This document shows positions 27,783-53,872 of a stretch of 54,316 bases of DNA, one piece after another (the stretch's first letter is position 1; every line of letters starts with the position of its first letter). The DNA comes from a bacterium. Lineage in GTDB: Bacteria; CG2-30-53-67; CG2-30-70-394. The stretch is taken from the NCBI GenBank assembly GCA_024278555.1, contig JAJRSX010000203.1, forward strand, positions 1 to 54,316, in the 5' to 3' direction. Below the pieces are notes generated by a model. That model did no database searches and was not told the DNA's origin. It saw only the letters and a program-made list of their open reading frames with translations. The position numbers were made by a program, and so were the translations under genes.

Positions 27783-27786
27783 GGCG

Positions 27787-32085: not shown

Positions 32086-32143
32086 GGTTACGGTCTCCTT
32101 GATGGCGGGTGGTCCCCGCCGGTACGGCTGGCGGTCACTCCCC

Positions 32144-33325: not shown

Positions 33326-33349
33326 GGGGTGGTCTCCTGAAGGTGCGGG

Positions 33350-34777: not shown

Positions 34778-34792
34778 GGGGTTGGGTTTTCG

Positions 34793-35404: not shown

Positions 35405-35407
35405 CGG

Positions 35408-36292: not shown

Positions 36293-36331
36293 GGGGGGGT
36301 TATCTCGGCAGGCAGGGGCGATCCATCGGAG

Positions 36332-36667: not shown

Positions 36668-36876
36668 AGGACCACCCCCGTGTGCTCACCGTCGGGGGCG
36701 CCGCTGGTCGTCTGCACCTGGGCGCTGCTGGTGATATGGGCCACCACCGCCGCGGCGATCGCCTCGGCATACCGGGTGATCCAGTCCGTCCCGTCCCGCT
36801 TCGGGTTCGGGGTGATCCCGCGGGCGGCCAGCTCAGCGAGGATCAGCCCCTTGAGGGTCGCACCGGAGAGGGCCAT
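36664..36876 (-). CDS. Small hypothetical baseplate-module protein
   Basis: ATG at 36876 (MALSGATLKGLILAELAARGI...) shares one base with the gpV stop (TGATG). 70 aa with 4-nt overlap onto gpW. No family recognised. Confidence 0.5.
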   Translation of the reverse strand: MALSGATLKGLILAELAARGITPNPKRDGTDWITRYAEAIAAAVVAHITSSAQVQTTSGAPDGEHTGVVL

Positions 36877-37550
36877 CAGTAGCTCTCCTTCACGGTCGCC
36901 GAGTAGTCCGGGTGGGGCGCCCCGGTGAAGGCGCAGATGCACTGGCCGGTCACCGTGCCGGTGAGCGAGCCGCTGCCCCCGTCGATCTCCACCTGGTGGG
37001 CGGTGAGGGTCGCCTTGCCGCCGGCGGTGACGTCGCAGGTGGTCCCCACGTCCACCGTCGCGGCCTGGCCCACGGTGACGTCGGCGCTCCCGTCCACCGC
37101 CACCGTCGCCGCCCCGGTGGTGTGGACATGGGCCTCGCCGTCGATCTCCACCGCCACCTGCGCGCTCGGCCCGGCCACGGTGACGGTGAGGTGGTGGGCG
37201 GCCCGGTCGTACTCCACGGTGGTGCCGTCAGCGAAGGTGGTGCGGCGCACCGTCTCCACATCCGCCGGCGCCGGGGTGGCGCTCTGGTAGAGGGCCGGCA
37301 TCACCACCGCCTGGGCCAGCTCGCCCGAGGGGGCGAGGAGGACCACCTGCTCGCCGACCTCCGGCGCCCACCAGTCCACGTCGCCTCCGGCGCGGCGGGT
37401 GAGCCACGGGAGCCAGTCGGTGGTGAGGTCGCCCAGGTCGACGCGCAAGAGCGCGGGGGCATAGTCCGCCTCGGCCACCGTGCCGACGCGCACCACATTC
37501 GCCAGGCGCCGGGCCAGATTGGCCAGATCGATGGGGCTCACCACGCTCAT
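36876..37550 (-). CDS. Baseplate assembly/spike protein V (P2 gpV / Mu gp45-like)
   Basis: ATG at 37550 (MSVVSPIDLANLARRLANVVRVGTVAEADY...) in track ORF 36876..37691. OB-fold N-terminus, beta-helical TV-rich repeats, C-terminal apex motif GQCICAFTGAPHP. Confidence 0.8.
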   Translation of the reverse strand: MSVVSPIDLANLARRLANVVRVGTVAEADYAPALLRVDLGDLTTDWLPWLTRRAGGDVDWWAPEVGEQVVLLAPSGELAQAVVMPALYQSATPAPADVETVRRTTFADGTTVEYDRAAHHLTVTVAGPSAQVAVEIDGEAHVHTTGAATVAVDGSADVTVGQAATVDVGTTCDVTAGGKATLTAHQVEIDGGSGSLTGTVTGQCICAFTGAPHPDYSATVKESY

Positions 37551-38095
37551 CCGGTTACCGCCGTATAGTCCGGCTCGTGGCCGGTGCCGATGTCCGGTGC
37601 CACCCCGGACCACACGGTGGAGGGGATCACCCCGGAGGCGTCCCACACCGAGGTGCCGAAGCGCACCTCCTGCGTCCAGGTGATCGCCCACAGGGCGAGC
37701 CCCGCCCCGTCGACCGGGCCGGAGTAGAGGTTCTCCAGCCGCTCCAGCCGCGCCGGCCCCACGCCGGCGAGCCCCCAGCGGGCCGAGGCGCCCAAGGTGA
37801 GGAGCACCGTCTCGGCGATCCCCACCGCATCCAGGGTGCGAGCGCTCCGGCCGCGGCCGTTGCGGGTGGCGATATAGACCCCGAGGCGGAGGGAGAGCGC
37901 CACCTCCTCGCTCCCCGGATCGTCACCGGGGGTCGCGCCGAGGAGCACCACGAAGCAGGCCGGCGCCACGAAGCTCGGTCGCGATGTCTCGGCGGCGTCG
38001 AACTGGCCGGCGTAGAGCTCGCAGGCGACCGGGGGCGGCAGGGCCGCCCCGAGGGCCGCCTCCACCGCGACCAGCAGCTCCGACGGCGTCGCCAT
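37547..38095 (-). CDS. Mu gp37-like protein (DUF1834)
   Basis: 182-aa ORF following the gp36-like gene as in Mu. ...LYAGQFDAAE....PACFVVLLG...LRLGVYIATRN is my recollection of the DUF1834 pattern. Confidence 0.6.
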   Translation of the reverse strand: MATPSELLVAVEAALGAALPPPVACELYAGQFDAAETSRPSFVAPACFVVLLGATPGDDPGSEEVALSLRLGVYIATRNGRGRSARTLDAVGIAETVLLTLGASARWGLAGVGPARLERLENLYSGPVDGAGLALWAITWTQEVRFGTSVWDASGVIPSTVWSGVAPDIGTGHEPDYTAVTG

Positions 38096-38595
38096 TAGTA
38101 CGACCCTCCGAAGTCGTGGCGGTCGACGGAAAAGGCGGGCAGATCGTCACCCGCGGTCCCATCCCCCGTCTCCCCCAGCCCGACCCGGCCGGCAGCCACC
38201 CCCTTGAGGAAGGCCACCGCGTCTTCGTAGCGGGCGCGCACCGCCTCCGAGGCACCGTCGTCATAGAGGTGGTAGCGCGCCAGATCGCAGGCGATCCGCA
38301 GGAGCACCGCGGGTACCGGGTCCAGGGGCAGGGCGAGGCGGGTGACGAGGTAGCCGTCGATCTCCGCCGCCGCATCCGCGAGCGCCTGGCCGAGCACCGC
38401 GGCGGCCGCATCCGCCGCGGCGACCTCCTCGGGCGAATACGCCGAGCGGTCGCCGCCGGCGACGGTGAGCGACAGGAGCAGCCCGTCCACCCGCGCCGTC
38501 TCCGACCGGTTGGCCACCTGCGCCATCTCGGTGGCGGAGAAACGGTCCAGCAGATCCTGAGGGGCGGCGTAGAGGCTCACTGGGCCTCCTCCCAC
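38095..38595 (-). CDS. Mu gp36-like head-tail connector protein (DUF1320)
   Basis: 166-aa ORF. LYAAPQDLLDRFSATEMAQVAN...AEIDGYLVTRLALPLDPVPAVLLRIACDLARYHLY is the DUF1320 consensus. Confidence 0.75.
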   Translation of the reverse strand: MGGGPVSLYAAPQDLLDRFSATEMAQVANRSETARVDGLLLSLTVAGGDRSAYSPEEVAAADAAAAVLGQALADAAAEIDGYLVTRLALPLDPVPAVLLRIACDLARYHLYDDGASEAVRARYEDAVAFLKGVAAGRVGLGETGDGTAGDDLPAFSVDRHDFGGSY

Positions 38596-39068
38596 AGGGC
38601 GTTCAGCAGCCGTTGCGGGCTCACTGCGGCGGCGTTGCCCACCGGCAGGGTGACCCCCGCCTGGTGCAGTAGATAGACCGCCAGCTCGGAACAGAACCAG
38701 CGGCGGCGCGCCTGAACCGGGTTGCGGCGCAGGCGAATCCCGACGAACCCCAGCAGGCCGATGATCAGCAGGGCCGGGTAGGCGAGCCAGTCGTAGCCGG
38801 CGCCTTCCACACGACAGGCCGCATCCTCCAGCGCGTCAAGATCGACATGGTCGATGGGGATAAAGATCACCCCCGGCAGCCCCTCCGGCACAAAGACCCC
38901 CCGGACCCCATGGAACGCCACCGCCTCCACCGCGAACCACCCCCCAGAGATGTCCTGGTTGCCTACCGCCACATGGACCACGTTGGGCGCCCCGTTTCGC
39001 CGGTGGGTTACGACGTCGATCGCCCGGCCGAGGAGGTGGCGCGGGCGGAAGAAGAGGAGACCGGTCAC
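38577..39068 (-). CDS. Permuted papain-fold (YiiX/YaeF, peptidase C92-like) amidase
   Basis: 163-aa ORF. The family order is conserved: GLLFFRP...VVHVAVG (His), FAVEAV (acid), GAGYDW, then the catalytic Cys in WFCSELAVYLL. One hydrophobic segment, AYPALLIIGLLGFVGI. Confidence 0.6.
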   Translation of the reverse strand: MTGLLFFRPRHLLGRAIDVVTHRRNGAPNVVHVAVGNQDISGGWFAVEAVAFHGVRGVFVPEGLPGVIFIPIDHVDLDALEDAACRVEGAGYDWLAYPALLIIGLLGFVGIRLRRNPVQARRRWFCSELAVYLLHQAGVTLPVGNAAAVSPQRLLNALWEEAQ

Positions 39069-39078
39069 GGCGACCCTC

Positions 39079-39621
39079 TCAGATCGCGTCGAGCTGGGTA
39101 ACGGCGTCGTCCGCCTCCGCGGCCACCGTCACCGCGTCGACATCCACGGCGATCGCCGCCTTCGCCCCCTGACGGAGCTGCTCGATGGCGGCGGCCAACG
39201 CGATCCACTGGGCGGCGGTCGCCAGAATGGTGTCGGCCGCCTGGGTCGGGGTGACGCCGGTGGCCGCTGACTCGGCGGCGATCAGCGGGTAGCCCGTCGT
39301 ATCGGCCGGGTACCCGGCCGCCTGGTAGGCGGCCGCCTGCTCCCGCTTCAGGGCGTAGACCGCCTCCTGGCCCGGGGTGGTGGTGATGTAGCGGGCGCGG
39401 GCCGCGCCGGCGGCACGATCCACCCGCGCCACCGCGTCTGCCTTCAGCGCGGGCAAGGGGTCGAAGGCGGCGATGGCGTCGAGGACCTCCTGCCGGCTCA
39501 CCCCGTCGGGGACGGTGACGTGGAGCACGCCTGCCTCCTGATCCAGCACGTAGCCGAGGGAGACAAGGTGCGCCTTGGTGGGGGCGGGGAGGTCGGGGAG
39601 GTCGAGGGGGTGGCGGTCCAT
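39079..39621 (-). CDS. Hypothetical phage protein (Ala-rich helical)
   Basis: 180-aa ORF whose start overlaps the upstream stop (TAATG). No family recognised. Confidence 0.55.
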   Translation of the reverse strand: MDRHPLDLPDLPAPTKAHLVSLGYVLDQEAGVLHVTVPDGVSRQEVLDAIAAFDPLPALKADAVARVDRAAGAARARYITTTPGQEAVYALKREQAAAYQAAGYPADTTGYPLIAAESAATGVTPTQAADTILATAAQWIALAAAIEQLRQGAKAAIAVDVDAVTVAAEADDAVTQLDAI

Positions 39622-40181
39622 TAGGCGAGGTCCACGGCAAGCGAGAAGGAGGCGTAGCTCGCAGTGAGTGCTGCGAGGGGCGAGGTGGGTGTGTTGTAGG
39701 ACCCGTTGAAAAAGCTCGCCCCCACCACAGTCGGGGCACTCGCGGTGCCGACCACCCCGGGCAACGGTCCGGGGGAGTTACACCTCTGGAGGTTCTGGCC
39801 GGCCGTCACCTGGAGCCCCACATAGGCCTCGCACCCGACCGGGATCGACAGCCCCCCCACGACCACGGCGCCGTTGTAGCCTGCGGTGATCACCCCGACC
39901 CCGGCGCCGAGCAGGGCGCGGCTATCGGCATCCCACACCGCCACCCCCACGTTGGCCGCCGCGGAGGCCCCATTGTTCTGGGTGACGAAGCGCACCGCCG
40001 TGATCGTGCCGGGGTCGGCAAAGAGGAAGGGCTCGGCCCACCAGCCGACGGAGGGGATCGCGTCCACCGCCGCCAGGTCCGGCTCGCCGCAGGCGATCGA
40101 CCAGAAGGTGCCGGTGGCCGATCCCGGCCACACGGCCCGCGCCCCGCCGCCCCCTTGCTCGCTTCGCCACAGCCCGCTCAC
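39621..40181 (-). CDS. Hypothetical phage protein (beta-rich); likely GTG start at 40181
   Basis: Track ORF 39621..40196. The GTG at 40179-40181 is preceded by GGAGGTGG and overlaps the upstream stop (GTGA). No family recognised. Confidence 0.5.
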   Translation of the reverse strand: MSGLWRSEQGGGGARAVWPGSATGTFWSIACGEPDLAAVDAIPSVGWWAEPFLFADPGTITAVRFVTQNNGASAAANVGVAVWDADSRALLGAGVGVITAGYNGAVVVGGLSIPVGCEAYVGLQVTAGQNLQRCNSPGPLPGVVGTASAPTVVGASFFNGSYNTPTSPLAALTASYASFSLAVDLA

Positions 40182-40498
40182 GCCACCACCTCCCATGTGA
40201 CCGCGCCGCCGGTGGCGGTAAGCCGCACGGCGGTGGCCGGGCCGACCAGGGCGTCAAGGGTGGCGGTGGTGACGTTGCCGGCGGGCCACGGCAGCCACCG
40301 GCCGGCGCCCGCCTCGACCTCGCTGCGCGGCGACAGGGAGAGCTCCACCAGACCGGTCGCCCCGGCCGCCGGGAAGACCCCGACGGAGACGCCCACCGGG
40401 CGCGCCCCTTGAGGGATGATGAGGGGGCCATTGGTGGTCCCGTCCGGGACGGTCGCCTGGAACTCCCAGGCGCTGCCGTTGAAGATCATGGAGGGCAT
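40178..40498 (-). CDS. Hypothetical small phage protein (beta-sandwich-like)
   Basis: 106-aa ORF with coding-like third-position bias. No family recognised and no clear SD. Confidence 0.45.
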   Translation of the reverse strand: MPSMIFNGSAWEFQATVPDGTTNGPLIIPQGARPVGVSVGVFPAAGATGLVELSLSPRSEVEAGAGRWLPWPAGNVTTATLDALVGPATAVRLTATGGAVTWEVVA

Positions 40499-40824: not shown

Positions 40825-41703
40825 TTACGGCAGCCAGGGGACGACCAGGACCTCGACCGCGTCGCGGTTGATGTTGGTGGCGCCGTTGGCGTTGCGCTCG
40901 GCCTTCACCACCTCCAAGGCGGCGGCGCGGTTGGACGGCCCGACCACCAACAGGTCCGGGTTGACCCCGAGGGGCCTCCCCTCGTCGGACGAAAAGGCCA
41001 TCATCGCGGCGAGCGCGGAGGCGAAGTTGCCCCCGTCCAGGGCCGCCTGCGAGCCATACGCCTGCTGCCAGAAGCCGAAGCCGGTGTTGACCCGCGCGTC
41101 CACCCCGTAGCGGTACTCGTCGCGCATGAACACCGCCTCGTCATCCACCTTGGTCATCGCCTTCAGGGCGTAGTCGCGGCGGCGCTGGAGGATCAGGGGC
41201 TTCAGCGGCCGGCGGGTGTCGAGCAGGTACCACGGGTTGCCCCCGCCCGCCTGCATGTTGCTCACCGAGGCGCCGCCCACCGGGTGGTCGGTGTCGAAGA
41301 AGTACTGGCCGTCGTAGCACGGGGTGGCGAAGCCGGCGGCCAGCAGCCCGAAGACCAGCTCGTCCGGGTGGGTGGCGGCGGAGTAGCCCATCTCCCCGAA
41401 CAGCGGCGTGTAGACCCCGTAGGTGTCGTCCTCGATGTCGTCGCGCGGCACCGCCACGGTGGACTCGAACTTCTTGTTCTTGATGGCGTAATCGTGGCTC
41501 GCCATCGACTTGATCTGCCGATCCCCGAGCCACTCGCGCATGCGCGGGAACTGGCCGAGCCAGGCGTACTTCTCTTGCTTGGTCGTCGACGGCACCAGGG
41601 TGGCGATCCGCTGCCAGTTGGGGGTCACCCCCTGAAAGGCGCCGGCGAACGCCGCCTTGAAGCCGGTGAAGAGATCGGTGAGCGATGCCTGGTTGATGAT
41701 CAT
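40825..41703 (-). CDS. Major head subunit (Mu gpT-like)
   Basis: 292-aa ORF. MIINQASLTDLFTGFKAAFAGAFQGVTPNWQRIATLVPSTTKQEKYAWLGQFPRMREWLGDRQ is the characteristic Mu-like gpT N-terminus. Confidence 0.88.
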   Translation of the reverse strand: MIINQASLTDLFTGFKAAFAGAFQGVTPNWQRIATLVPSTTKQEKYAWLGQFPRMREWLGDRQIKSMASHDYAIKNKKFESTVAVPRDDIEDDTYGVYTPLFGEMGYSAATHPDELVFGLLAAGFATPCYDGQYFFDTDHPVGGASVSNMQAGGGNPWYLLDTRRPLKPLILQRRRDYALKAMTKVDDEAVFMRDEYRYGVDARVNTGFGFWQQAYGSQAALDGGNFASALAAMMAFSSDEGRPLGVNPDLLVVGPSNRAAALEVVKAERNANGATNINRDAVEVLVVPWLP

Positions 41704-42383: not shown

Positions 42384-43421
42384 TTAAGCGGCGGCGAGGC
42401 CCGCCTTGTAGGTCTTGGAATCGAGCCCCATGGCGCGGCAGATGGCGGTCTGCTGGGCGTTCAGGCCATCGGCCCCCTCCCCCGTATCGGGGTCGGCGCC
42501 GCCGCTCTGGGAGCTCCGGAGCGCCGCGATGGGCTGGGCGGATTCGACGTAGCTGGTGAGCGCGGCGAGGTTGGTGGTGCCCAGCTCCCGTGCCCACCCC
42601 TCTTGGGCCGGCAGCAGGCGGCCGTCGGCCAACGCCGCGGCGACCAGGGTGTCGACCTCGCGGCCGGTGGACTCGGCGCGCAGGGCGGCGATCTCGGTGC
42701 GCAGCTCCTCCACGACCGTCACCGGCGCGTACTTCGCCGGGTCCGGGGTGGCGGTGGCCGCCTTGGCGGCGGCGACCGCGGCCTGGGCCGTGTCGATCTG
42801 GGTCCGCAGGGCGGCGATGGCCGCCACCGCGTCGTCGATGCCGGCGCCCTCGGTCAGGTCGAGGGCTTCCTTCAGTGCCTTGTCCACATCGTTCTCCAAA
42901 GGGGGTTGGGGGTCGTGCAGGGTTCGGCGGGCGGCGGCGCGCGCCACCACCTCGCTCATGCCGTCGATCGCCGGGGCGTTGGTGAGGCCGGCGTTGAGCA
43001 CGTCGAGGACCTCGCCGGACTCGGGCAGGTAGGAGAAGACCGCCGAGATGTAGCGGTACTCGGCCGCGTCGATGGCTGCGGTGGCCTTCGGCGTCCACTG
43101 CACGCCGGTGGCGAACAGCCCCTCGCCGTCGCGCCACTGAAGGCCGCTGAACCATCCGGCCGCCGGCGCCGGCTGGCCGTTCCATTCGGTGTTCAGGGTC
43201 TGGTGCTCATAGTCGATCACCCGCCGGTTGACCCGGCGAGCGCCGCGTTTGATCACCAAGGCGGCGATCTCGGCATCGAGCCGCCACGCCGCCGCGTCCC
43301 GCGGCCGGCCGTCCTCGGCCCGGAACTCCCCCGCGGGCAAGAGCTGCACCTCCGTCACCGGAGTGGCCCCCACCTCGAATGCACATGCCACCATGCCGAT
43401 GGCTTGCGACCGCGTTGTCAT
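42384..43421 (-). CDS. Head maturation protease/scaffold (Mu gpI-like)
   Basis: 345-aa ORF. VQLLPAGEFRAEDGRP...WRLDAEIAALVI....RRVIDYEHQT...AAGWF..LQWR.GEGLFA..VQWT..A...I...EYRYISAVF matches the Mu-like_Pro pattern, followed by an Ala-rich scaffold-like C-terminus. Confidence 0.8.
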   Translation of the reverse strand: MTTRSQAIGMVACAFEVGATPVTEVQLLPAGEFRAEDGRPRDAAAWRLDAEIAALVIKRGARRVNRRVIDYEHQTLNTEWNGQPAPAAGWFSGLQWRDGEGLFATGVQWTPKATAAIDAAEYRYISAVFSYLPESGEVLDVLNAGLTNAPAIDGMSEVVARAAARRTLHDPQPPLENDVDKALKEALDLTEGAGIDDAVAAIAALRTQIDTAQAAVAAAKAATATPDPAKYAPVTVVEELRTEIAALRAESTGREVDTLVAAALADGRLLPAQEGWARELGTTNLAALTSYVESAQPIAALRSSQSGGADPDTGEGADGLNAQQTAICRAMGLDSKTYKAGLAAA

Positions 43422-44384: not shown

Positions 44385-45629
44385 CTACTCTCTTCCATAG
44401 AGGAGTAGTCCGCGCCGGGCATTTTGGGCGGTATTGAGCTTGGAGGTGGGGATCCACGTCCACGCCTCCAGGAGTCCACGGGTGGCCTGGGCGACGAGCA
44501 GCATCCCTCGGGTCTTGTCGAGATCAAGCAACTTGATGAAGCGCTGGCGGAGCACCACCTTGCCGGTGCCCTTGTGGCGCTCGAAGGTCTGCCACACCTC
44601 GTAGGGGTCGGTGAGGGTCTCTTCCAGGAAGGGGAGGTAGGGGGTGCGGTCCAGCGGCAGGTGGGCGGCGAGGGTCTCGGCGTTGACCAGGGTGGTGTAA
44701 CTCCACCCCTTCGCCTCAAGGGTGAAGGTTCGCTCCTCGCCGCCGAGCTGCTCGCGCAGGCGGGCCGCCGTCTCCGTCTGGGTGGCGGCGGGCCGGATCG
44801 CCTTGGCCTTGGGCTTGTCCAGGGGGATGCGCTCGGGCCGGTGGTGGCTCTGCCGGCTCCCGGGGGTGAGCGGCTCCCAGGCGGCGGCGCCCTGGTGCTG
44901 CCACGCACCCATGGCACGCTCGGAGAGCGGCCGCCCCCAGGCCGCCTCGCCGACGTTGTAGGCCCAGCCGGGGTCGATGCCGTTGGGGATGGTGTGGGTC
45001 CGGCCGGTCTGCCGGTCCTTCCAGCGATAGGTGCCGTCGTCCGGGGCGGTGTCGGGTCCCTGCTTGCCGCTGTTCTTGAGCTGGCGCTCGGAGCGGGCGA
45101 AGGTTCGGCATCGGCACCCCCAGCCGTTCGGGGTCCCGTGGGTCTTCCACCACGGGTCGTCCGCCTTCAGCACCAGGCCGTCCCAGGCGAGGTGCAGCGG
45201 CCGGGGGCGGACCGAGTCGCCGTGGCGGTATTCCCAGTAGGGGTTGCGCTCCAAAAAGGCCGGGTCGGTCATCTGCCGGTAGCGGCCGGCCGCATACGCG
45301 GTGCGCAGGTTGGTCTCGTAGATGGTGCGGGTGCGCCAGGCGCGACCCTTCTTGGAACCCTCCCCGGTCCAGCCGGTCCAGCCCCGGCGGGCGACGGTGG
45401 CCTCGAAGTCGTCGCGGAACTGTTCCAGGGTGGTGCCGTCCGCGATCGCCCCGTCCACCGCCTGGCGGAGGTCGGCCAGGAGATCCTCCTGCATGGCGCC
45501 GGCGACCACGAAGGCGCGGGCGTGCATCCCCTCCCAGAGGTCGGTCCACCGCTCGGTAGGGAGATCGACCTTCTGGCGGAAGAAGGTGATGGCCTCGGGG
45601 AAGGGGAGAGCGCGGTGGTCTACGGCCAT
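44385..45629 (-). CDS. Head morphogenesis protein (Mu gpF / SPP1 gp7 family)
   Basis: 414-aa ORF. ...FFRQKVDLPTERWTDLWEGMHARAFVVAGA...RTRTIYETNLRTAYAAGRYRQM...YWEYRHGDSVRPRPLHLAWDG...NGWGCRCR. Confidence 0.85.
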   Translation of the reverse strand: MAVDHRALPFPEAITFFRQKVDLPTERWTDLWEGMHARAFVVAGAMQEDLLADLRQAVDGAIADGTTLEQFRDDFEATVARRGWTGWTGEGSKKGRAWRTRTIYETNLRTAYAAGRYRQMTDPAFLERNPYWEYRHGDSVRPRPLHLAWDGLVLKADDPWWKTHGTPNGWGCRCRTFARSERQLKNSGKQGPDTAPDDGTYRWKDRQTGRTHTIPNGIDPGWAYNVGEAAWGRPLSERAMGAWQHQGAAAWEPLTPGSRQSHHRPERIPLDKPKAKAIRPAATQTETAARLREQLGGEERTFTLEAKGWSYTTLVNAETLAAHLPLDRTPYLPFLEETLTDPYEVWQTFERHKGTGKVVLRQRFIKLLDLDKTRGMLLVAQATRGLLEAWTWIPTSKLNTAQNARRGLLLYGRE

Positions 45630-45928
45630 GGGCTCGCCGTGTTGGTGGCAGGGGGCGGATCCGCCCCCTCATCCAGGCCCTCTCCCACGAGGGGAGAGGG
45701 CGCTTCTTCCCGGAGCGCCGCCGCGAGCAGCCCGGCATAGACGGCGGCCTTCTCGGCGTCGCGCGCCGCTGCCGCGCCGCCCTCCTTGTAGTTGAGCCGG
45801 CAGAGGTATTTGAGGTTGTTGCCCAGGAGGAAGCCGCGGTACTGCTCGTCGGTGAGCTTGGCGCGCAGGATGTCGAGGGTCTCGATACCGCCGGCGTCGT
45901 AGTAGGCGGCGTTGGGGTCGTGGCTCAT
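45620..45928 (-). CDS. DUF3310-family small phage protein
   Basis: 102-aa ORF overlapping both the portal stop (ATGA) and the gpF start. YYDAGGIETLDILRAKLTDEQYRGFLLGNNLKYLCRLNYKEG...DAEKAAVY is the DUF3310 signature. Confidence 0.65.
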   Translation of the reverse strand: MSHDPNAAYYDAGGIETLDILRAKLTDEQYRGFLLGNNLKYLCRLNYKEGGAAAARDAEKAAVYAGLLAAALREEAPSPLVGEGLDEGADPPPATNTASPWP

Positions 45929-47538
45929 CGGCCCTCCCCCACCTCGAAACGGCCCGCGAGGTCGGCGGCGGTGAAGGCTTGTTGCAAGGTGGCGGCGAGG
46001 TCGGAGACCCCCATCTCCGGGTAGAGGGCGAGCAGCCCGTCGCGGAGCTCGTCCATCGACCGGGCGGTGGCGACCAGGCGGCGGACCGGGGCGAGGAGCC
46101 CATCCATGGCGCTCGCGGCCGCCTCGTCCAATTGGTCGGCGTAGTGGTCGGCGGTGTCGGGGTCGGGATCCCCGGCCCGGAGGGCGGCGCAGTGGGGGCA
46201 GGCTCCCCGGAGGGCCGGATTCATCCGGCCCACGGCGTCCGGCGGGTGGAAACCCGCCCTACGGAGCGCGGCCTGGCCGAACGGCAGTGCCGGCCGCAGC
46301 ACCTCCTCGTCCTCCTGGGGCCTCGGGATGCGGAGCTTGTCGTGGGCGTAGTCGAGGGGGATCTCCATCCCCACCTCCACCAGCTTGGGAATGGCGTCGG
46401 CGTAGAGCTTGAGGTCCTCGGGCTCGCGGGTGTCGAAGCGGAAACGGGGGCCGCGGCCGGGATCGAGGCCGGGCAGGTTAAGGGTGGCCAGGGGCCACAC
46501 CAGGTCGCGGGTGAGGGTGGAGGCGAGTTGCAGGGCGTCGGCCACCAGGAGGTCGTGGCGCACCTCGTTGTGGACGGTACCCAGGGCGTTGGTGCTGGTC
46601 TTGCCGTCGGCCTGGCTGGTGAGCGTGCCGCCGAGGATGGCCTTCGACTGGGTGCGCTCACACCAGTCGATCATCGCCTGGAAGGGGTCGGAGCGGTCGG
46701 CCGCCGCCTCCTTGAAGTCGACCATCATCCCCTCGGGGATGATGCCGGCGGCGTTGTGGCCGAGGTTGACCACGGCGCGGAGCAGGGTGGCCTTTTCCTT
46801 GTCCGAGCTGCCCGGCGGGTAGGTCCCCAGCCGCAGGGGCAGGCCGTAGATCTCCAGGAACTCGGCCAGGTCGCGGACGCTGTAGTTCTTGAACAGGTAG
46901 GGCCAGGCGAGCACCCGGTGGAGGCCGGCGCGGCCCAGGTAGCCACTTTTCGCCTTGTGGATGTGGGTGATCCAGGAGAACGGCCGCAGCGCCTCGGTCT
47001 CCTGGCCCTTCCTGCGCAGGAGCAGCCGGTCGTGGTTTTCCTTGGCGACGGTGAACCAGCGCGGCGGCCGGTGGGTGATGTCCGACGGCACCCACTCGTT
47101 ACCGTCACGACCCCAGGTGATCTCCAGGCAGGAGAACCCCTTGCCGATGGCGTCGGCCATGTCCAGGAGGGTGTCTTCGAAGTTGGACAGGTCGCGGAGC
47201 ACGTCCCCCACCCACTCGGCCGCCGTCTCCTCGGTGGCGGTGGCGCCCCTGGGGGCCACCACCTCCCAGTCCAGCCCGAGGAGTGCCCGGCGGCGTTTGG
47301 ACAGCTCGGCGTAGATGTGGCCGTCCCTCTCCTCCATGTCGTCGAAGAGGTCGCATTGGGCGGTGAGGTCGCCGCGCTCGGCGTCGGTGAGGATGGAGGC
47401 GAGCTTGGCGGGGGTCAGCCCGCGGGCCGGGTGGTCGGCGAACTCCTTGTGGAGGTGGCCGAGCTTCGCGGTCTGGGCGGCTTGCAGGTCGCCGCTCTTC
47501 ACGGGGTGGCCGCGGTGGTCGAGGATCGTTGCCATCAT
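45925..47538 (-). CDS. Portal protein (Mu gp29 / DUF935)
   Basis: ATGATG at 47533-47538 preceded by AGGAGAA, inside track ORF 45925..48018. MMATILDHRG...DHPARGLTPAKLASILTDAERGDLTAQCDLFDDMEERDGHIYAELSKRR. The 160 upstream codons are Pro/Arg-rich junk. Confidence 0.88.
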   Translation of the reverse strand: MMATILDHRGHPVKSGDLQAAQTAKLGHLHKEFADHPARGLTPAKLASILTDAERGDLTAQCDLFDDMEERDGHIYAELSKRRRALLGLDWEVVAPRGATATEETAAEWVGDVLRDLSNFEDTLLDMADAIGKGFSCLEITWGRDGNEWVPSDITHRPPRWFTVAKENHDRLLLRRKGQETEALRPFSWITHIHKAKSGYLGRAGLHRVLAWPYLFKNYSVRDLAEFLEIYGLPLRLGTYPPGSSDKEKATLLRAVVNLGHNAAGIIPEGMMVDFKEAAADRSDPFQAMIDWCERTQSKAILGGTLTSQADGKTSTNALGTVHNEVRHDLLVADALQLASTLTRDLVWPLATLNLPGLDPGRGPRFRFDTREPEDLKLYADAIPKLVEVGMEIPLDYAHDKLRIPRPQEDEEVLRPALPFGQAALRRAGFHPPDAVGRMNPALRGACPHCAALRAGDPDPDTADHYADQLDEAAASAMDGLLAPVRRLVATARSMDELRDGLLALYPEMGVSDLAATLQQAFTAADLAGRFEVGEGR

Positions 47539-47762
47539 TTCTCCTGGGCGGTGTCCCCGGTGACGACGTGACCCCGGAAGAGGAGCGGCGGGCACCAGTG
47601 GAAACAGGGGTCCACCGGCACAAACGAGCGCAGCTCGCCGGAGGGCGCGAGCCACAGGAAGTGGGGGAACCAGCCGTAGTGGGAGCGCCGCACCACCAGG
47701 TAGCCGCCGAGGCGGAACCAGCGGGAGAGCGCCCAGAGCAGGCAGTTGGAGCGGGTCACCAT
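47535..47762 (-). CDS. Small hypothetical protein coupled to the portal gene
   Basis: 75-aa ORF (MVTRSNCLLWALSRWFRLGGYLVVRRSHYGWFPHFLW...) with 4-nt overlap onto the portal start. It sits where a large terminase gene would normally lie but has no terminase features. Confidence 0.5.
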   Translation of the reverse strand: MVTRSNCLLWALSRWFRLGGYLVVRRSHYGWFPHFLWLAPSGELRSFVPVDPCFHWCPPLLFRGHVVTGDTAQEK

Positions 47763-47899
47763 GCGCCGACCTCCTGGGGCAGGAGATCGTCGACGTCGTC
47801 GTCAACGTCGGCCGAGCGGTCCCAGATGGAACCCTTGTCCGGGGCGGCGGTGTACTCGATGGGGGCGGGCCGCATCTCGGAGACGGCGTACTCGGCCAT
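47756..47899 (-). CDS. Possible 47-aa acidic ORF, first gene of the structural operon
   Basis: ATG at 47897-47899. MAEYAVSEMRPAPIEYTAAPDKGSIWDRSADVDDDVDDLLPQEVGAW. The stop overlaps the next ATG (ATGGTGA). No SD and no family recognised. Confidence 0.3.
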   Translation of the reverse strand: MAEYAVSEMRPAPIEYTAAPDKGSIWDRSADVDDDVDDLLPQEVGAW

Positions 47900-47980
47900 G
47901 GCCAGGGCGACCAACGCCGCGCCGTGCTCGCCCGGCTCACCGAGCGTGGCGCCCGCTTCGCCCCCAAGGACGCCCCGCAG

Positions 47981-48187
47981 ATGGTCGCGAGCGACGAGCG
48001 GTGGCCGATGATGCACAAGGTCGAAGCGCTGCTGGCCGAGGCCCACCGGCCGTGGGCCTACGCCCACGCCGTGGCGAAGCACATGTTCAACCGCCCCCGG
48101 GTCGACCACCTCACCCCGCGCGACCTCCACAAGCTCATCGCCGCCCTCATGGCCGACGCCCGCCGCCACGGCCGGAGGGTGCAATGA
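47981..48187 (+). CDS. GemA/Mu gp16 (DUF1018)-like protein, C-terminal half only (probably truncated)
   Basis: ATG at 47981 (AAGGA upstream) in track ORF 47924..48187. KVEALLAEAHRPWAYAHAVAKHMFNRPRVDHLTPRDLHKLIAALMADARRHG resembles only the last roughly 55 residues of the gp16 family as I recall it. The family N-terminal half is missing. Confidence 0.45.
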   Translation: MVASDERWPMMHKVEALLAEAHRPWAYAHAVAKHMFNRPRVDHLTPRDLHKLIAALMADARRHGRRVQ

Positions 48188-48684
48188 GCGGCCCGACCCA
48201 GGCGCAGGAGGTCCCCATCGAGGCGTCCGTGATCCCGCCCGTCGTGCCGGTGGAGATCACCGGCTGGGACGCCGCCGGCCCGCCCCCCACCACCTGTCCG
48301 CGCTGCCACACCTCCGGCCTCCTGCGCTGGGAGCGCCTCGACGACATCGGCCCCTACGCCCTCGCCGCCCGCTGCCTGTGCGGCCACCTCTCCTACCACC
48401 AAGCGGTCGTTCGGGTCGTCCGCCGATCGCCGGACGAAGAGCGAGCCATCGCCAGAAACCGGCGTCTCATCCCCATCGAGCGCTGCGACCTCTGCGGCAC
48501 CGACCGGGCCCGGATCCACGGCCTCTGTGCCCGCTGCGCCTCCCGCGAGCTCAAGCGCGGCACCAAGGACGCCGCCTACACCCCGTGGTACCAGCTCCCC
48601 GCAGCAGACCGCACCGAGACCGAGCGCGCCGCCCGCCTGATCCTCGGTACTCGAAATCACCGGCACCCCGAACCCCGAGGCTAA
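48184..48684 (+). CDS. Cys-rich zinc-ribbon protein, unknown function
   Basis: ATG at 48184 overlaps the previous stop (ATGA). 166 aa with CPRCH...CLCGH and CDLCG...CARC pairs. Confidence 0.55.
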   Translation: MSGPTQAQEVPIEASVIPPVVPVEITGWDAAGPPPTTCPRCHTSGLLRWERLDDIGPYALAARCLCGHLSYHQAVVRVVRRSPDEERAIARNRRLIPIERCDLCGTDRARIHGLCARCASRELKRGTKDAAYTPWYQLPAADRTETERAARLILGTRNHRHPEPRG

Positions 48685-48689
48685 CCCCC

Positions 48690-49124
48690 ATGGCCGAACA
48701 ACCTGACCTCCCCCTGGGCGCCATGGAATGCGACGTCGACGCCCTGCTCGCCCGCCTCGACGACCTCGACGCGGTGGCGCCGGCCGATGCGTGGCCGCAG
48801 ACCCTGGCGGACCTCTTCGACATCCTCACCGACCACTACACCCGCCGCCGCGATCACCCCGAGGCGGACGCCCGGCGCGAGGCCGAGGAGATCGTCATCC
48901 TCCTCGCCCACTGGCTCGGCGGCCGTCCGGTGTATCTGCCCCGCGACGACTCCCTCCGCCGCGCCCTGCGCGACGCGGACATCTACCGCGACTTCGGCCG
49001 GCGCTCCGCCGCCGAGCTCGCCCAGGCCCACCGCCTCACCCCCATGCAGATCTATCACATCATCCAGCGCCAACGGCGGCTCCATCAGGGACGAGTGCAG
49101 CGGGAGCTGTTTCCTGAGGAGTAG
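48690..49124 (+). CDS. Mor/C-family transcriptional activator (Mu middle/late regulator type)
   Basis: 144-aa ORF. ...ILLAHWLGGRPVYLPRDDSLRRALRDADIYRDFGRRSAAELAQAHRLTPMQIYHIIQRQR is the Mor-family core with a C-terminal HTH. Confidence 0.75.
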   Translation: MAEQPDLPLGAMECDVDALLARLDDLDAVAPADAWPQTLADLFDILTDHYTRRRDHPEADARREAEEIVILLAHWLGGRPVYLPRDDSLRRALRDADIYRDFGRRSAAELAQAHRLTPMQIYHIIQRQRRLHQGRVQRELFPEE

Positions 49125-49132
49125 CCGTAGCC

Positions 49133-49381
49133 ATGGCCCTCAACCTCTGGCTGGATAAGCTCCGCAAACAAATGCAGGCCGCCCACGACCGGGCGGAGGC
49201 GCGATACTACTACTTTCCGGACCTGAAGGATCGCGCCGCCCTCGGCAAGTGGCTGAAGAAGTCCGCGGCCCAGCACGAGCGCGAATCGCAAAGGCATCTC
49301 GATCGACTGTCTGAACTAAGAAGAGACATCTCTGACCTCGATTCCCTGATCTACTGGGAACGGCAGAGTAAGCGTCGGTGA
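49133..49381 (+). CDS. Small charged coiled-coil protein, unknown function
   Basis: 82-aa ORF with lower GC than its surroundings. Last ORF before the phage terminus. Confidence 0.45.
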   Translation: MALNLWLDKLRKQMQAAHDRAEARYYYFPDLKDRAALGKWLKKSAAQHERESQRHLDRLSELRRDISDLDSLIYWERQSKRR

Positions 49382-49688
49382 CGCTCCCTCCCCCGTGCCG
49401 GGGTCGGCGCCGCCGCTTTGGGGCGCTCGAAACCCGCATGGAGTCCCGGCTCCCAGCCGTGTCCATCGACAGCAGAACAGACCTGACATGTTGCAAATCT
49501 CGACGCACGCTACACATACCGAACCATTGCAGTCCTCCCCAAAATAGAAGGCCGCACGTCTACGTTGCGCCATGATTGAGCCGGAGGCGAGGCGGCCCCG
49601 TCGGAGAAGGAGGAGATTTGCTCCCTTGCCGCCACCGGCCATAGTGCTCGTGCCCTGGCTGAGCTGTACGGGTGTCATGCAACTGTAG

Positions 49689-49797
49689 CAGCGTACTTTT
49701 CTCCATTGGGGTTGTCGGCCTTTCGCCGCCGGTGCAGTTGCCGTTAAATCAGTGGGTTAGCGAGAAAAGTACGCTCCACCTAGAAAAGTACGCTGCC
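49689..49797. promoter_or_regulatory. Three copies of a 13-nt box AGAAAAGTACGCT (one inverted, two direct): candidate operator or transposase-binding sites
   Basis: AGCGTACTTTTCT at about 49690-49702. AGAAAAGTACGCT at about 49763-49775 and 49782-49794. They lie 310-415 bp from the phage terminus in a 725-bp ORF-poor, lower-GC segment. Confidence 0.4.
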
Positions 49798-50105
49798 GTA
49801 CCATTCGCCCGCCCAAAATCAGCCCCCTCCGAGTCCCCCCTCAATCCATGTGACAGCTAGTTTTTTTCTGTTTGCATAAGGGTTTGAACGCCGGTCACGG
49901 GCAATCTTGCAATAATATGCAAAGCCCCTCCGAAGCCCCTCCGAAGCCCATACCCCCCCAAATCACCGCTGCGTTCGTTGCGACACTCCCCCACGCCCCC
50001 GTCGAGCTCCCCACCCCCTAACCCCTTGCCCCTCAACACCTTTCCCACCAAATCCCACCATCCCCCACCCCATCCCGCCCTTCGCATCCATCCTGACCCC
50101 CCACA

Positions 50106-50110
50106 GCGAC
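50106..50110. repeat. 5-bp target-site duplication, right copy (GCGAC)
   Basis: Follows phage terminus ...ccccccaCA. Identical to 26728-26732. Confidence 0.8.
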
Positions 50111-50289
50111 GGAGCGCCACGGGGTTGCCGTGCACGAGGACGGCGCAAAATCGTGTTGTTTTCTGATGGAGTTCTCTGTGCCCTCTGTGTCTCTGTGGTG
50201 AAAAATCCCTTCCGGGAGCCCTCCACCTCCCGGCCGAGGCGTGGAGCGACGCCGTACTTGGCCTGCATCGCTATTTCCGCTGATCCTCT
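50111..50289 (+). repeat. Right part of the MITE-like repeat copy (D) split by the prophage
   Basis: ggagcgccacggggttgccgtgcacgaggacggcgcaaaatcgtgttgttttctgatggagttctctgtgccctctgtgtctctgtggtg continues exactly where 26732 stops, relative to copy B. It ends with terminal repeat TTTCCGCTGATCCTCT (50274-50289), inverted relative to 26454-26469. Confidence 0.85.
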
Positions 50290-50339
50290 CAGCGGTGGAG
50301 ACTCGGCCGCGGCGACGCGCCGCGGGGCCGTCAGGTTAC

Positions 50340-50428
50340 GGTAGGAACCGGCTCCCGCCGGCGATCCGCGCCGCGAGGCGCGGCAGGCCCTCTGGGCCTG
50401 GTTCGCGAGCGGGAGCTCGCTCCTACCC
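50340..50428. repeat. REP-like long hairpin
   Basis: GGTAGGAACCGGCTCCCGC...GCGGGAGCTCGCTCCTACC: inverted arms about 19 nt long separated by about 50 nt, related to the GGTAGGAG REP family. Confidence 0.6.
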
Positions 50429-50488
50429 TTTCTGTGGGGCGTGTTGGCTTTCATCGACATGTCATTCGGCCCGAAGGGCCGTCCTTCC

Positions 50489-51898
50489 CTATTTCCCTAC
50501 CTCCCTATCTCCGCCCACGTGGGCCGCAATCTGCTCCCCGCTCAACCGGTGCAGCTCCTCCCGCGGCAGGAGCCGCAGGGCGGCCCAGCCGGCGGTCATC
50601 GACTCGGCGAGGGTGCGCGGCCCCTCCTGGGCGACGACCTCGCGCTCGAAATGGTCGCCGAAGCGGAGGTAGGCGCGGTCGACCTCCGAGACCCCCTCCT
50701 CCCCCACCACCGAGGCGAGGACCCGCGCCTGCACCGCGCGGGCGTAGGAGGCGTAGAGCTGGGTGGCGAGGGCCGGGTGGTCCGGGTGGGTGAAGCTGTC
50801 GCCGGTGCCGTCCTTCATCAGCCGCGAGAGCGACGGCAGCACCTTCACCGGCGGGTAGAGGCCACGGCGGGCGAGGTCGCGATCCAGGACGATCTGCCCC
50901 TCGGTGATGTAGCCGGTGAGGTCGGGGATCGGGTGGCTCATGTCGTCGCCGGGCATGGTGAGGATCGGGAGCTGGGTGATCGAGCCGGCCACCCCGCGGA
51001 TCCGGCCGGCGCGCTCGTAGAGGGAGGCGAGATCAGAGTAGAGGTAGCCCGGGTACCCCTTGCGCGCCGGGATCTCCCCGTGGCCGGCGGAGACCTCGCG
51101 CAGGGCCTCGCAGTAGTTGGTCATGTCGGTGAGGATCACCAGGACGTGGCGGTGCTCGGTGAAGGCGAGGTACTCGGCGGCGGTCAGCGCCACCCGCGGC
51201 GCCAGGAGCCGCTGCGCCGGCGGGTCGGAGGCGAGGTTGAGGAAGAGGGTGGTGCGCGCCGCCCCGCCGCTCGCCTCCATCGCCCGCCGGAACCGCTCGG
51301 CGGTGGCGTGGGGGATGCCGATCCCGGCGAAGCAGACGGCGAACCCCTCCCCCTCCCGGTCGTCCCCCGCCGCCGGCAGGCGGGCGTGGCGAAGGAGGTC
51401 GATGGCGATCCGATCGTGGGGCAGGCCGCCGCCGGAGAAGATCGGCAGCTTCTGGCCGCGCACCAGGGAGTCGAGGAGGTCGATGGCAGTGATCCCGGTC
51501 TCGATGAACTCCGACGGCGCCACCCGCGCCACCGGCTTGATCGCCAGGCCGTCCACCCGCCGCGCCTCGACCGCCGCCACCGGCGGGCCGCCGTCGATCG
51601 GCTTCCCCACCCCGTTGAAGGTGCGGCCGACCATCCCCGGCCCCACCGCCAGCTTCAGGGGCTCGCCCATGAGCCTGACCCGGGTGGTCGCCAGGGCGAG
51701 GTTGGTGGTGGACTCCAGGAGCTCGACCACGATCCGCTCCTCGTCCACCGCCGCCACCCGCCCCAGGCGCGTCCGGCCATCGTCGCCCACCACCTCCACC
51801 GCCTCGTTGTAGCCCGCCGCGGCGGTCCGCCGGAGAAAGAGGAGCGGCCCGTCGATCCGCGCCAGGCCACCGGAGAGGACCACCGGCAGCCGGCTCAC
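50489..51898 (-). CDS. atpB: V/A-type ATP synthase subunit B
   Basis: GTG (VSRLPVVLSGGLARIDGPLLFL...) overlaps the atpA stop, inside track ORF 50489..53107. 469 aa. Motifs GRTFNGVGKPIDGGP, GQKLPIFSGGGLPH and ILTMPGDDMSHPIPDLTGYITEGQI. Confidence 0.9.
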   Translation of the reverse strand: MSRLPVVLSGGLARIDGPLLFLRRTAAAGYNEAVEVVGDDGRTRLGRVAAVDEERIVVELLESTTNLALATTRVRLMGEPLKLAVGPGMVGRTFNGVGKPIDGGPPVAAVEARRVDGLAIKPVARVAPSEFIETGITAIDLLDSLVRGQKLPIFSGGGLPHDRIAIDLLRHARLPAAGDDREGEGFAVCFAGIGIPHATAERFRRAMEASGGAARTTLFLNLASDPPAQRLLAPRVALTAAEYLAFTEHRHVLVILTDMTNYCEALREVSAGHGEIPARKGYPGYLYSDLASLYERAGRIRGVAGSITQLPILTMPGDDMSHPIPDLTGYITEGQIVLDRDLARRGLYPPVKVLPSLSRLMKDGTGDSFTHPDHPALATQLYASYARAVQARVLASVVGEEGVSEVDRAYLRFGDHFEREVVAQEGPRTLAESMTAGWAALRLLPREELHRLSGEQIAAHVGGDREVGK

Positions 51899-53658
51899 CG
51901 TCCCCCCTCCCCGCCGCCGCCGTGGCCCGCCGGACAGCCGAGGCGGGTGAAGTCCTGCTCCACCGCCTCTTCGAGGGTCGCAAAGGCCGCCTCCCCAACC
52001 ACCTCCTCGCCCATGCGCAGGAGACGGCGGTAGCTCTCCAGCGCCGTGATCGTCTCCGGCTCCACCCCGCACTCGAGGGCCTCCTCCGCCAGGTCGAGGA
52101 AGCGCGCCACCACCCGCACCATGGCCGCCTGGCGCGCGGGCGGACAGCGGCCGTCCACCGGCGAGAAGGCGGACTGGCGCAGGAGGGCCTCGTTCACCAG
52201 CCGCGCCTCCACGAGAATCAGCCGCTGGGCCGGCGGCAGCGCCTCGGCGCCGAGGATCCGCGCCATCCGCGCCAGCCGCCGCTCCTCCTCCAGGAGGGTG
52301 AGCATCCGGGTGCGCACCTGCTCCCAGTGGGGCTGGCCGTGGGCCTGCCACCACGGGGCGAGCCGCTCCGCCTCCTCGCTGTACGAGGTGAGCGGGTGGA
52401 TCGCCGGGTAGAAGCGGGCGTGGGCGCGCTCCGTATCCAGGACCCACACGGCACGCACGTAGCGGCGGGTGTGGACCACCACCGGCTCCTCCATGTCGCC
52501 CGACGGCGGGCTCACCGCGCCCAGCAGGGTGACCGACCCCTCGGTGCCGGCCAGGGTCCGCACCCGGGCGGCGCGCTCGTAGAAGTCGGCGAGACGGCTG
52601 GAGAGGTAGGCGGGGTAGCCCGCCTCGCCGGGCAGCTCCCCGAGGCGGCCGGAGACCTCGCGCAGGGCCTCGGCCCAGCGGGAGGTCGAGTCGGCCATCA
52701 CCGCCACGGAGAGCCCCATGTCGCGGAAGTACTCGGCGACGGTGACCCCGGTGTAGATGGAGGCCTCGCGCGCCGCCACCGGCATGTTCGAGGTGTTGGC
52801 GATGATCACCGACCGCTCCATCAGCGGCCTGCCGCTCTGCGGATCCTCCAGCTCCGGCAGCTCCGCCAGCAACCCGGCGAGCTCGTTGCCCCGCTCGCCG
52901 CACCCGACATAGACGATCACGTCCGCGTCGCACCCCTTGGCGAGGGATTCGAGCATCACCGTCTTGCCGGTGCCGAAACCGCCGGGGATCGCCGCCGAGG
53001 CGCCGCGCGCCACCGGCAGGAAGGTGTCGATGATCCGCTGGCCGGTGATCAAAGGCGCGTCCGCGACCAGGCGCGCCGCCACCGGCCGCGGCTCCCGCAC
53101 CGGCCATGGGTGGGCGAGGGAGACCTCGACCTCGTCGCCGGCATCGGCCCGCACGGTGCAGACGGTCGCGTCATCCTGGTACGCCCTGGCCGCCGCCACC
53201 CGCACCACCTCCCCGGCCACCCGCGGCGGCGCCAGGGCGGGCACGGTGCGGCCGCCGACCGCCACCTCCCCGAAGGGGTGGCCGGCGACGAGGCGCTCCC
53301 CCGGCCGCACCGTGGGGGTGAAGGCGAGGGGGGGGGTGGCGCCGGCCGGGGCGCCCGGCCGCACAAAGGGGTCGTCGCCGAGGTGGAGCGGCCGCAGGAG
53401 GCCGTCGAAGGTCCCCCCCAACAGCCCCGGCGACAGGCGCACGGCCAGGGGCGCGCCGCTCCCCTCCACGGTCGCCCCGGGCGCCAGGCCGGTGGTCTCC
53501 TCGTACACCTGCACGACGATCTCCCCCGCCTCCAGACGGACCACCTCGCCGAGGAGGCCGAGATCGCCGACCCGCACCGCCTCGCGCATGGCAAAGGGGG
53601 CCTCGGGCCGCGCCCGCACCACCGGCCCCCCCACCCAGGTGACCCGCGCGGTGCTCAC
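51895..53658 (-). CDS. atpA: V/A-type ATP synthase catalytic subunit A
   Basis: GTG at about 53658 (VSTARVTWVGGPVVRARPE...) in track ORF 51895..53775. Walker A IPGGFGTGKTVM, GCGERGNE and SRWAEALREVSGRLGELPGEAGYPAYL. Confidence 0.9.
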   Translation of the reverse strand: MSTARVTWVGGPVVRARPEAPFAMREAVRVGDLGLLGEVVRLEAGEIVVQVYEETTGLAPGATVEGSGAPLAVRLSPGLLGGTFDGLLRPLHLGDDPFVRPGAPAGATPPLAFTPTVRPGERLVAGHPFGEVAVGGRTVPALAPPRVAGEVVRVAAARAYQDDATVCTVRADAGDEVEVSLAHPWPVREPRPVAARLVADAPLITGQRIIDTFLPVARGASAAIPGGFGTGKTVMLESLAKGCDADVIVYVGCGERGNELAGLLAELPELEDPQSGRPLMERSVIIANTSNMPVAAREASIYTGVTVAEYFRDMGLSVAVMADSTSRWAEALREVSGRLGELPGEAGYPAYLSSRLADFYERAARVRTLAGTEGSVTLLGAVSPPSGDMEEPVVVHTRRYVRAVWVLDTERAHARFYPAIHPLTSYSEEAERLAPWWQAHGQPHWEQVRTRMLTLLEEERRLARMARILGAEALPPAQRLILVEARLVNEALLRQSAFSPVDGRCPPARQAAMVRVVARFLDLAEEALECGVEPETITALESYRRLLRMGEEVVGEAAFATLEEAVEQDFTRLGCPAGHGGGGEGGR

Positions 53659-53872
53659 CCGCCCTCCGCGCCGGTGAGGATCGGCGAAAACAACCACCAC
53701 GGAGAAATCTGATGTCTCGGTGTCATCGGCTGAACAGAGACCCGAAAGCACAACGATCTTGATACGCGAAAACATTCAACATGGGTGCTCTTCCAACAGG
53801 GTGTTCCACGTGGTTTCCCCCCCGTATCCTCGTGCTCCAGCGGGGTGCGGGATGGCGGAACGCTCAAGGCCA

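Follow-up and report, generated by a model that had tools for sequence, protein, structure and literature searches.

A defective Mu-type prophage in a bacterial V-type ATPase operon, probably derived by one internal deletion between gemA and terL

Gene arrangement of the prophage

Contig JAJRSX010000203.1 (assembly GCA_024278555.1) from a bacterium of the GTDB lineage CG2-30-53-67; CG2-30-70-394 is 54,316 bp long and was analyzed over its entire length, which we call the window. It contains a V-type ATPase operon that is interrupted in the spacer between atpB and atpD by a 23.4-kb prophage. The element spans positions 26733-50105 (23,373 bp), with termini of the form TGT...ACA, and consists of a long late operon on the minus strand and a short arm on the plus strand that diverges from it and leads to the Mor-side terminus (Table 1). 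Where the two meet, part of the early gene gemA faces part of terL, the gene for the large terminase subunit (TerL). We consider it very probable that this is a defective Mu-type prophage of BcepMu/B3-type layout, in which a single internal deletion of ~15 kb fused half of gemA to the terL stump.

The late operon comprises ~25 structural genes in ~21 kb, which appear intact. It joins a Mu-type head module (Portal_Mu, Mu F, protease/scaffold and capsid) to a P2-type contractile tail, whose sheath protein is 64-68% identical to those of P2-like phages, and head-tail connector proteins are encoded as well. The genes left in the element are full length, with a G+C content at third codon positions (GC3) of 0.89-0.95 that is typical of coding sequence. 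Together with this head module the element carries a transcription activator of the Mor/C family on the divergent arm, as is expected of Mu-like transposable phages. This activator had been recognized in a first-pass annotation of the window, made from the sequence alone, and its assignment is clear.

Table 1 Principal features of the prophage and its surroundings, in window coordinates (ORF, open reading frame; MITE, miniature inverted-repeat transposable element; aa, amino acids).
Feature	Coordinates	Strand	Remarks
V-ATPase subunit D gene (atpD)	25797-26402	-	host flank
Left half of MITE-like host repeat (insertion target)	26621-26732		right half at 50111-50230
Left target-site duplication, GCGAC	26728-26732		identical to 50106-50110
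Tail-side end	26733-26782	+	5′-TGT, imperfect terminal inverted repeat, two AAGTTTGCGA repeats at 26747 and 26769
Late operon	26790-47538	-	genes intact by PHROG and Pfam matches and codon-position GC analysis
P2-type contractile tail genes	26790-38095	-	D, U, tape measure, E/E′, tube, sheath, fibre, I, J, W, V
Four genes without assigned function	38577-40498	-	between head genes and head-tail adaptor; an insertion relative to phage H71
Capsid gene	40825-41703	-	Mu-type head module
Protease/scaffold gene	42384-43421	-	Mu-type head module
Mu F-like head protein gene (F)	44385-45629	-	PF04233; Mu-type head module, which also has a G gene
DUF3310 gene	45620-45928	-	PF11753 (5e-13); between portal and Mu F genes
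Portal gene	45925-47538	-	Portal_Mu, PF06074 (2.9e-112)
ORF75 (75-aa phage protein)	47535-47762	-	GC3 0.93; coupled to terL stump and portal gene
terL 3′ remnant, last ~58 codons	47756-47932	-	contains 47-aa ORF, 47756-47899
Predicted deletion junction	47909-47932		edges of TerL (-) and GemA (+) profile alignments meet or overlap
gemA 3′ fragment, ~92 of ~139-147 codons	47909-48187	+	first ~52 codons missing
166-aa protein with four Cys pairs (zinc-ribbon-like)	48184-48684	+	weak DZR matches in Pfam (E 0.04-0.07); GC3 0.89
Mor/C-family transcription activator	48690-49124	+	PF08765 (1.6e-21), phrog_532 (1.7e-32)
ORF82 (82 aa)	49133-49381	+	GC3 0.73; gene call in source record
Non-coding terminal stretch, 724 bp	49382-50105		ends in Mor-side terminus ...ACA
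Right target-site duplication, GCGAC	50106-50110		identical to left copy
V-ATPase subunit B gene (atpB)	50489-51898	-	host flank
V-ATPase subunit A gene (atpA)	51895-53775	-	host flank

Prophage ends and target site

Both prophage ends had been described in the first-pass annotation, and their positions, 26733 and 50105, were confirmed exactly. The first 26 nt of the two termini are identical at 18 of 26 positions and share a TGCGAAG box at the same offset (positions 20-26). The element thus has the 5′-TG...CA-3′ ends, the imperfect inverted repeats and the repeated subterminal sites of a Mu-like transposable phage, and it is flanked by a 5-bp target-site duplication.

The insertion target was a copy of a MITE-like host repeat. 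We rebuilt the empty site from the two halves of this repeat, removing one GCGAC, and compared it with the intact copy at ~14409-14610, in which the pentamer occurs once, as GCAAC. The two sequences agree without gaps at 194 of 202 positions. This comparison with a paralogous repeat proves the boundaries of the element to the base and likewise the 5-bp duplication. Target duplications of 5 bp are typical of Mu-type transposition, and the element arrived by an insertion of this type. A 5′-TGT terminus has been described for Mu-like Pseudomonas phages (PMC4378225). The ends were also compared with those of the phages H71 and BcepMu, but the likeness was loose only and was not used as evidence.

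The gemA-terL junction

Directly upstream of the portal gene, the first-pass annotation had noted two tiny coupled ORFs of 47 and 75 aa. Their coordinates and their coupling are correct: the stop codon of the 47-aa ORF overlaps the start of ORF75 (ATGGTGA), and the stop codon of ORF75 overlaps the portal start (ATGA). The 47-aa ORF, however, is not a gene. We compiled a TerL profile from 68 related prophages, using in each the gene that directly precedes portal. It gave a single match in the whole window, at 47932-47759 on the minus strand, covering profile positions 476-528 of 528 (E = 2e-9). The homology takes in the 47-aa ORF and the 11 codons that precede its ATG, and tblastn searches independently aligned the ORF with the 3′-terminal part of the gene before portal in several relatives. 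It is therefore the C-terminal stump of terL, and its ATG is an internal methionine codon.

On the opposite strand, a GemA profile of 147 positions aligned with its positions 53-144 from nt 47909 onward (E = 1e-26), so that five codons of homology precede the first start codon available. Translation could restart at GTG 47924 (87 aa) or at ATG 47981 (68 aa). The fragment matches PF06252 at positions 31-119 of 119 and phrog_286 at positions 54-148 of 186, while full-length GemA relatives have a median length of 139 aa. The view of the first-pass annotation that only the C-terminal part of a gp16/GemA family protein is encoded here was therefore right.

Both stumps have a GC3 in the range of coding sequence, 0.92 for terL and 0.95 for gemA. 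The 81-bp interval between the start of the 47-aa ORF and ATG 47981 is remnant coding sequence of the two truncated genes and not a control region. The edges of the two profile alignments place the junction at 47909-47932, within the interval of 47.90-47.98 kb that had been predicted for it.

Functions missing from the element

To search for the missing functions we ran iterated profiles for transposase A, the MuB-like protein B and the small terminase subunit (TerS), each started from the Mu and H71 proteins, against all six reading frames of the 54-kb window. None of the TnpA, MuB and TerS profiles gave a match better than E = 3, which bears out the earlier statement that transposase and MuB are absent. 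By tblastn with all H71 proteins and the early, lysis and packaging proteins of Mu, only the head genes and Mor/C were matched; for MuA, MuB, c, ner, lys, gp27 and gp28 of Mu, the window offers no counterpart. Among the called genes of the element, PHROG and Pfam scans identified none for a terminase, a transposase, a repressor, a holin, an endolysin or a spanin.

The element thus encodes neither a MuA-like DDE transposase nor an AAA+ MuB-like protein, and the position directly upstream of portal, where TerL and TerS would be expected, holds ~58 terL codons and no terS. The claim that terminase is missing consequently stands for terS and for a functional terL, but has to be amended for the 58-codon remnant. 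Similarly, no holin, endolysin or spanin is recognizable, as had been stated for the lysis cassette, although a 163-aa protein encoded at 38577-39068 within the late operon is a possible hydrolase. The first-pass annotation had further excluded a transposase by the lack of any ORF above 170 aa on the Mor-side arm. This was not correct in the literal sense, since ORFs of 312, 248 and 202 aa can be called there mechanically, but the conclusion holds. Those of 312 and 248 aa extend real plus-strand genes in the upstream direction, with a GC3 of 0.49 and 0.58 in the extensions and no extra domains, and the 202-aa ORF runs antisense to the Cys-pair gene.

By its gene content, the element lacks the means to transpose, to maintain immunity, to lyse the cell or to package DNA by itself. 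The deletion would account for the absence of transposase and MuB, and the element is therefore a derivative and not a functional member of the Mu-like phages. A scan of 47400-50500 for sigma-70-like promoters found none. As mor is also left without its upstream promoter region, the activation of the late genes has probably been lost.

Parental layout in related phages

Two reference phages show the layout from which the window can be derived. In the myovirus BcepMu (Burkholderia, Bcepmuvirus, NC_005882), the left end is followed by Mor (365-736, minus strand), GemA (733-1173, minus strand) and, further along, B and A. Divergent from this arm lie repressor, holin, endolysin, Rz/Rz1, TerS, TerL (14320-15822) and portal. 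The early arm is inverted relative to Mu, and its order is that of the window: removing ~1.0-15.6 kb (~14.6 kb) of BcepMu yields the gene order observed here. The window differs from BcepMu in that GemA and Mor are separated by a Cys-rich gene, an additional 82-aa gene and 724 bp precede the end, and ORF75 stands between terL and portal. Protein identities to BcepMu are low, and it is not among the best portal matches listed.

The best portal match in a phage (52%) comes from the B3-like Pseudomonas phages (H71, MH719190). H71 starts from its left end with Mor, a hypothetical gene and GemA, followed later by B, A and a ner-like gene, and divergently carries repressor, holin, endolysin and, after further genes, terS, terL and portal. 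Its head module is colinear with that of the window from portal through capsid, at 30-59% identity, whereas its siphovirus-type tail has no similarity to the P2-type tail of the window. The intact H71 genome measures 38.2 kb, and the equivalent deletion in it would be ~15.1 kb. In both phages, 125-365 bp separate Mor from the left end. The window shares this arrangement: gemA and mor adjoin an end of the element, are transcribed toward it and diverge from the late operon. With coliphage Mu the element has in common the 5-bp target duplication and the Portal_Mu, Mu F, GemA and Mor/C families, but the early genes of Mu run in the same direction as its late genes, unlike those in the window.

We further surveyed all related loci with at least 1.8 kb of sequence upstream of portal (n = 145). 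A full-length TerL precedes portal in every one of them, and in 13 a gap of 71-436 bp between TerL and portal leaves room for a small gene like ORF75, so that an insertion of this kind is not exceptional. Neither a functional transposase or terminase within the element nor relatives naturally built in this way were found, either of which would have spoken against the first-pass annotation. The phage is most closely related to prophages of Beta- and Gammaproteobacteria. When GTDB genomes were scanned with the portal, all hits fell in Proteobacteria, the best at 67% identity in a metagenome-assembled genome of the Rhodocyclaceae. In IMG/VR, the best portal identity was 59%, and a scan with Mor found no match. 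An exact look-up of the portal sequence returned no entry.

Origin of the defective element

According to the scenario that we favor, a transposable phage of ~38 kb with BcepMu/B3-type layout would have inserted into the MITE-like repeat between atpB and atpD, creating the 5-bp duplication. Its early operon would have read toward the left end, finishing with gemA, a small gene and mor, and its late operon in the opposite direction, through lysis genes, terS, terL, portal, head and tail. A later internal deletion of 14.6-15.1 kb, presumably by illegitimate recombination, would have begun near codon 52 of gemA and stopped ~58 codons short of the end of terL. Lost in this way would have been the remaining early genes with both transposases (A and B), the control region and repressor, the lysis genes and terS. 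The product would be the 23.4-kb prophage with both ends, the full set of head and tail genes, the terL stump and a promoterless arm with truncated gemA, the Cys-pair gene and mor. Loss of every host-killing function would favor fixation of such a deletion. The first-pass annotation had proposed a deletion that begins inside gemA, spans the early genes and control region and ends in the lysis and terminase genes; the two stumps as well as the parental order in BcepMu and H71 agree with it. Adding the presumed deleted stretch to the 23.4 kb present gives ~38 kb, a normal genome size for Mu-like phages, and the intactness of the remaining genes suggests that the deletion was recent.

Several points weigh against this scenario. 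At the junction, 24 nt are covered by both the terL and the gemA homology, which may reflect microhomology or merely soft alignment edges, and the junction is accordingly not resolved to the base. No close relative exists in the searched databases, the best portal identity being the 67% mentioned above, so distant phages had to serve for reconstructing the parent, and the size of the deletion is estimated. In most relatives with gemA and mor within 10 kb of portal, both lie on the strand of portal, in the canonical Mu order, and ancestry of the BcepMu/B3 type is argued from the arm adjoining a genuine end and from two reference phages. However, as the mor arm abuts a genuine transposon end, only the BcepMu/B3-type order accounts for the layout with one event. 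By comparison, a multi-step rearrangement of a phage with canonical Mu order would take no fewer than one inversion and two deletions, plus the creation of a phage end beside mor. The best matches of the GemA fragment, at 50-60% identity, do come from canonical-order prophages, but mosaicism accounts for such mixed affinities of single genes, and the mor arm ends, as in BcepMu and H71, at a genuine transposon end with matching terminal repeat and duplication. We regard such a rearrangement as hardly credible.

It is also very unlikely that the junction is an artefact of assembly, in which two parts of an intact prophage or of phage variants were joined at a short shared GC-rich sequence. The 24 GC-rich nucleotides of overlapping homology would be a place where an assembler could jump, and the window is a single whole NCBI contig with singleton proteins, which counts against the deletion scenario as well. 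Yet both reading frames are joined cleanly, the contig runs on colinearly into the host sequence at either flank, reconstruction of the empty site is perfect, and the smooth GC profile gives the rest of the contig no chimeric look; a deletion at microhomology in vivo would look alike. Comparably improbable is that the element depends on a helper or has been domesticated and is kept for its usefulness, either as a mini-Mu-like element that a related intact phage would mobilize and package or as a particle-producing locus resembling a gene transfer agent or tailocin and expressed by read-through from the V-ATPase genes. The intact ends and duplication, the ~25 intact-looking structural genes, the orientation of the late operon in line with atpA-atpB upstream of it and the cluster of three perfect 13-bp sites in the terminal stretch would all fit. 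However, the stumps at the junction are scars and not designed gene ends; terminase, lysis genes and a mor promoter are lacking, no second copy or conserved counterpart occurs in the databases searched, and a recent deletion would leave the genes just as intact. The specific version in which a "giant mini-Mu" or domesticated particle locus is maintained with functional ends and all virion genes, is transcribed by read-through from the V-ATPase operon and uses a co-resident relative, or nothing, for transposition, packaging and release is slightly more doubtful still. Each of these explanations is less parsimonious than the single deletion.

Three further element types were considered and rejected. 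Transposon ends, target duplication, the lack of terminase and the lack of an orthologous locus in the databases searched rule against a gene transfer agent. For a tailocin, the full head module is out of place, and no lysis genes are recognizable. A phage satellite resembling P4 or a phage-inducible chromosomal island does not agree with ~21 kb of structural genes, and the called genes gave no integrase or primase match.

The single deletion that we propose is an ordinary case of prophage decay of a well-known kind. In the defective prophage pool of E. coli O157 Sakai, modules are partly kept while genes for autonomous growth are lost (PMC2669165). Compared with those prophages, the scar in the window is unusually readable: both stumps, the ends, the target duplication, the empty site and the junction can all be recovered from one contig. 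It offers a clean example of how one deletion may strip a transposable phage of all host-lethal functions while sparing the virion genes. For annotation, the 47-aa "gene" of the source record should be treated as a terminase pseudogene fragment, the GemA ORF as truncated and the prophage as defective. By-products of the analysis are a family of small Cys/His proteins represented by ORF75, a family of MITE-like host repeats and a V-ATPase operon split by 23 kb.

The small protein ORF75

In contrast to the 47-aa ORF, ORF75 is a real accessory gene of a widespread, uncharacterized phage family and not a deletion scar. An exhaustive HMMER search among 1.84 billion representatives identified 348 relatives (E ≤ 1e-3), mostly of 70-110 aa, in which N6, C7, H34 and G64 are invariant or nearly so. 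The relatives come from contigs of phage size, where they neighbor lysis genes or precede terminase, and in one case from a Mu-like prophage. ORF75 has no match in Pfam, PHROG or NCBIfam, and an index of 5.8 billion proteins returned only the protein itself.

In a confident AlphaFold2 model (predicted local distance difference test score of 84), Cys7 lies at the N-terminus of a helix and His34 in a strand. This geometry suggests a minimal papain-like hydrolase, a prediction from the model. A comparison of the model with the PDB yielded no match below E = 1, and the matches in BFVD were all uncharacterized phage proteins.

The Mor-side arm

Between gemA and mor, the arm encodes the 166-aa protein, at the place of gene 02 in H71. 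Its previous description as a zinc-ribbon protein is backed by the four Cys pairs, but in Pfam only by weak matches, and among 5.8 billion proteins it matched only itself. The Mor-family activator is nearer to Mu C (37% identity, 7e-21) than to Mu Mor (34%, 7e-13). For ORF82, scans of Pfam, PHROG and NCBIfam gave no significant family match.

The DNA beyond ORF82 had been called ORF-poor, in agreement with our delineation of a 724-bp stretch to the terminus; it contains no Rfam family, and its small ORFs no Pfam domain. A tblastx comparison of this stretch with related loci returned low-complexity noise only and was discarded. It does contain three perfect copies of the 13-bp site AGCGTACTTTTCT, at 49690-49702 (+), 49763-49775 (-) and 49782-49794 (-), where 0.13 would be expected by chance. 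With two direct copies and one inverted copy, this arrangement looks like a cluster of putative protein-binding sites.

A direct repeat of 40 nt (36 of 40 positions identical) connects the arm with the late operon. One copy lies just past the ORF82 stop codon (49383-49422) and the other in the 3′ part of the protease/scaffold gene (42472-42511); both read QSGGADP(G/D)TGEGA on the minus strand.

Further observations on the late operon and the host

The C-terminus of the Mu F-like protein is a PBECR2 domain (Barnase/EndoU/ColicinE5-D/RelE-like nuclease; E = 3.9e-20). The DUF3310 gene has no counterpart at that place in H71. The four genes without assigned function were examined as a possible lysis cassette, but searches of Pfam, NCBIfam and PDB gave only a faint YaeF-like match, and the idea was rejected. 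The match belongs to the 163-aa protein mentioned above, which shows a His...Cys pattern, a hydrophobic segment, assignment to phrog_1128 and faint similarity to the permuted papain fold of YaeF (E = 0.08). On these sequence features it could be a candidate hydrolase.

The window has a G+C content of ~70% with a smooth profile. Besides the V-ATPase subunits, it encodes CheA, NrdJ, TrmFO and HDOD proteins. Ten of its proteins were looked up, and nine were present in the protein collection. At the 90% identity level, eight of these nine are singletons, NrdJ alone sharing a cluster with other proteins, which indicates that the host lineage is poorly sampled.

The late genes of the prophage share their direction with the atp genes, so read-through and a polar effect on atpD are possible. 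The MITE-like repeat is ~200 bp long with inverted termini of 35-50 bp (GATTTCACCACAGAGACACAGAGGGCACGGAGAACT) and occurs in at least three intergenic copies in the window: the copy occupied by the prophage (26621-26732 and 50111-50230), the intact copy at 14409-14610 and a further one at ~12881-13010.

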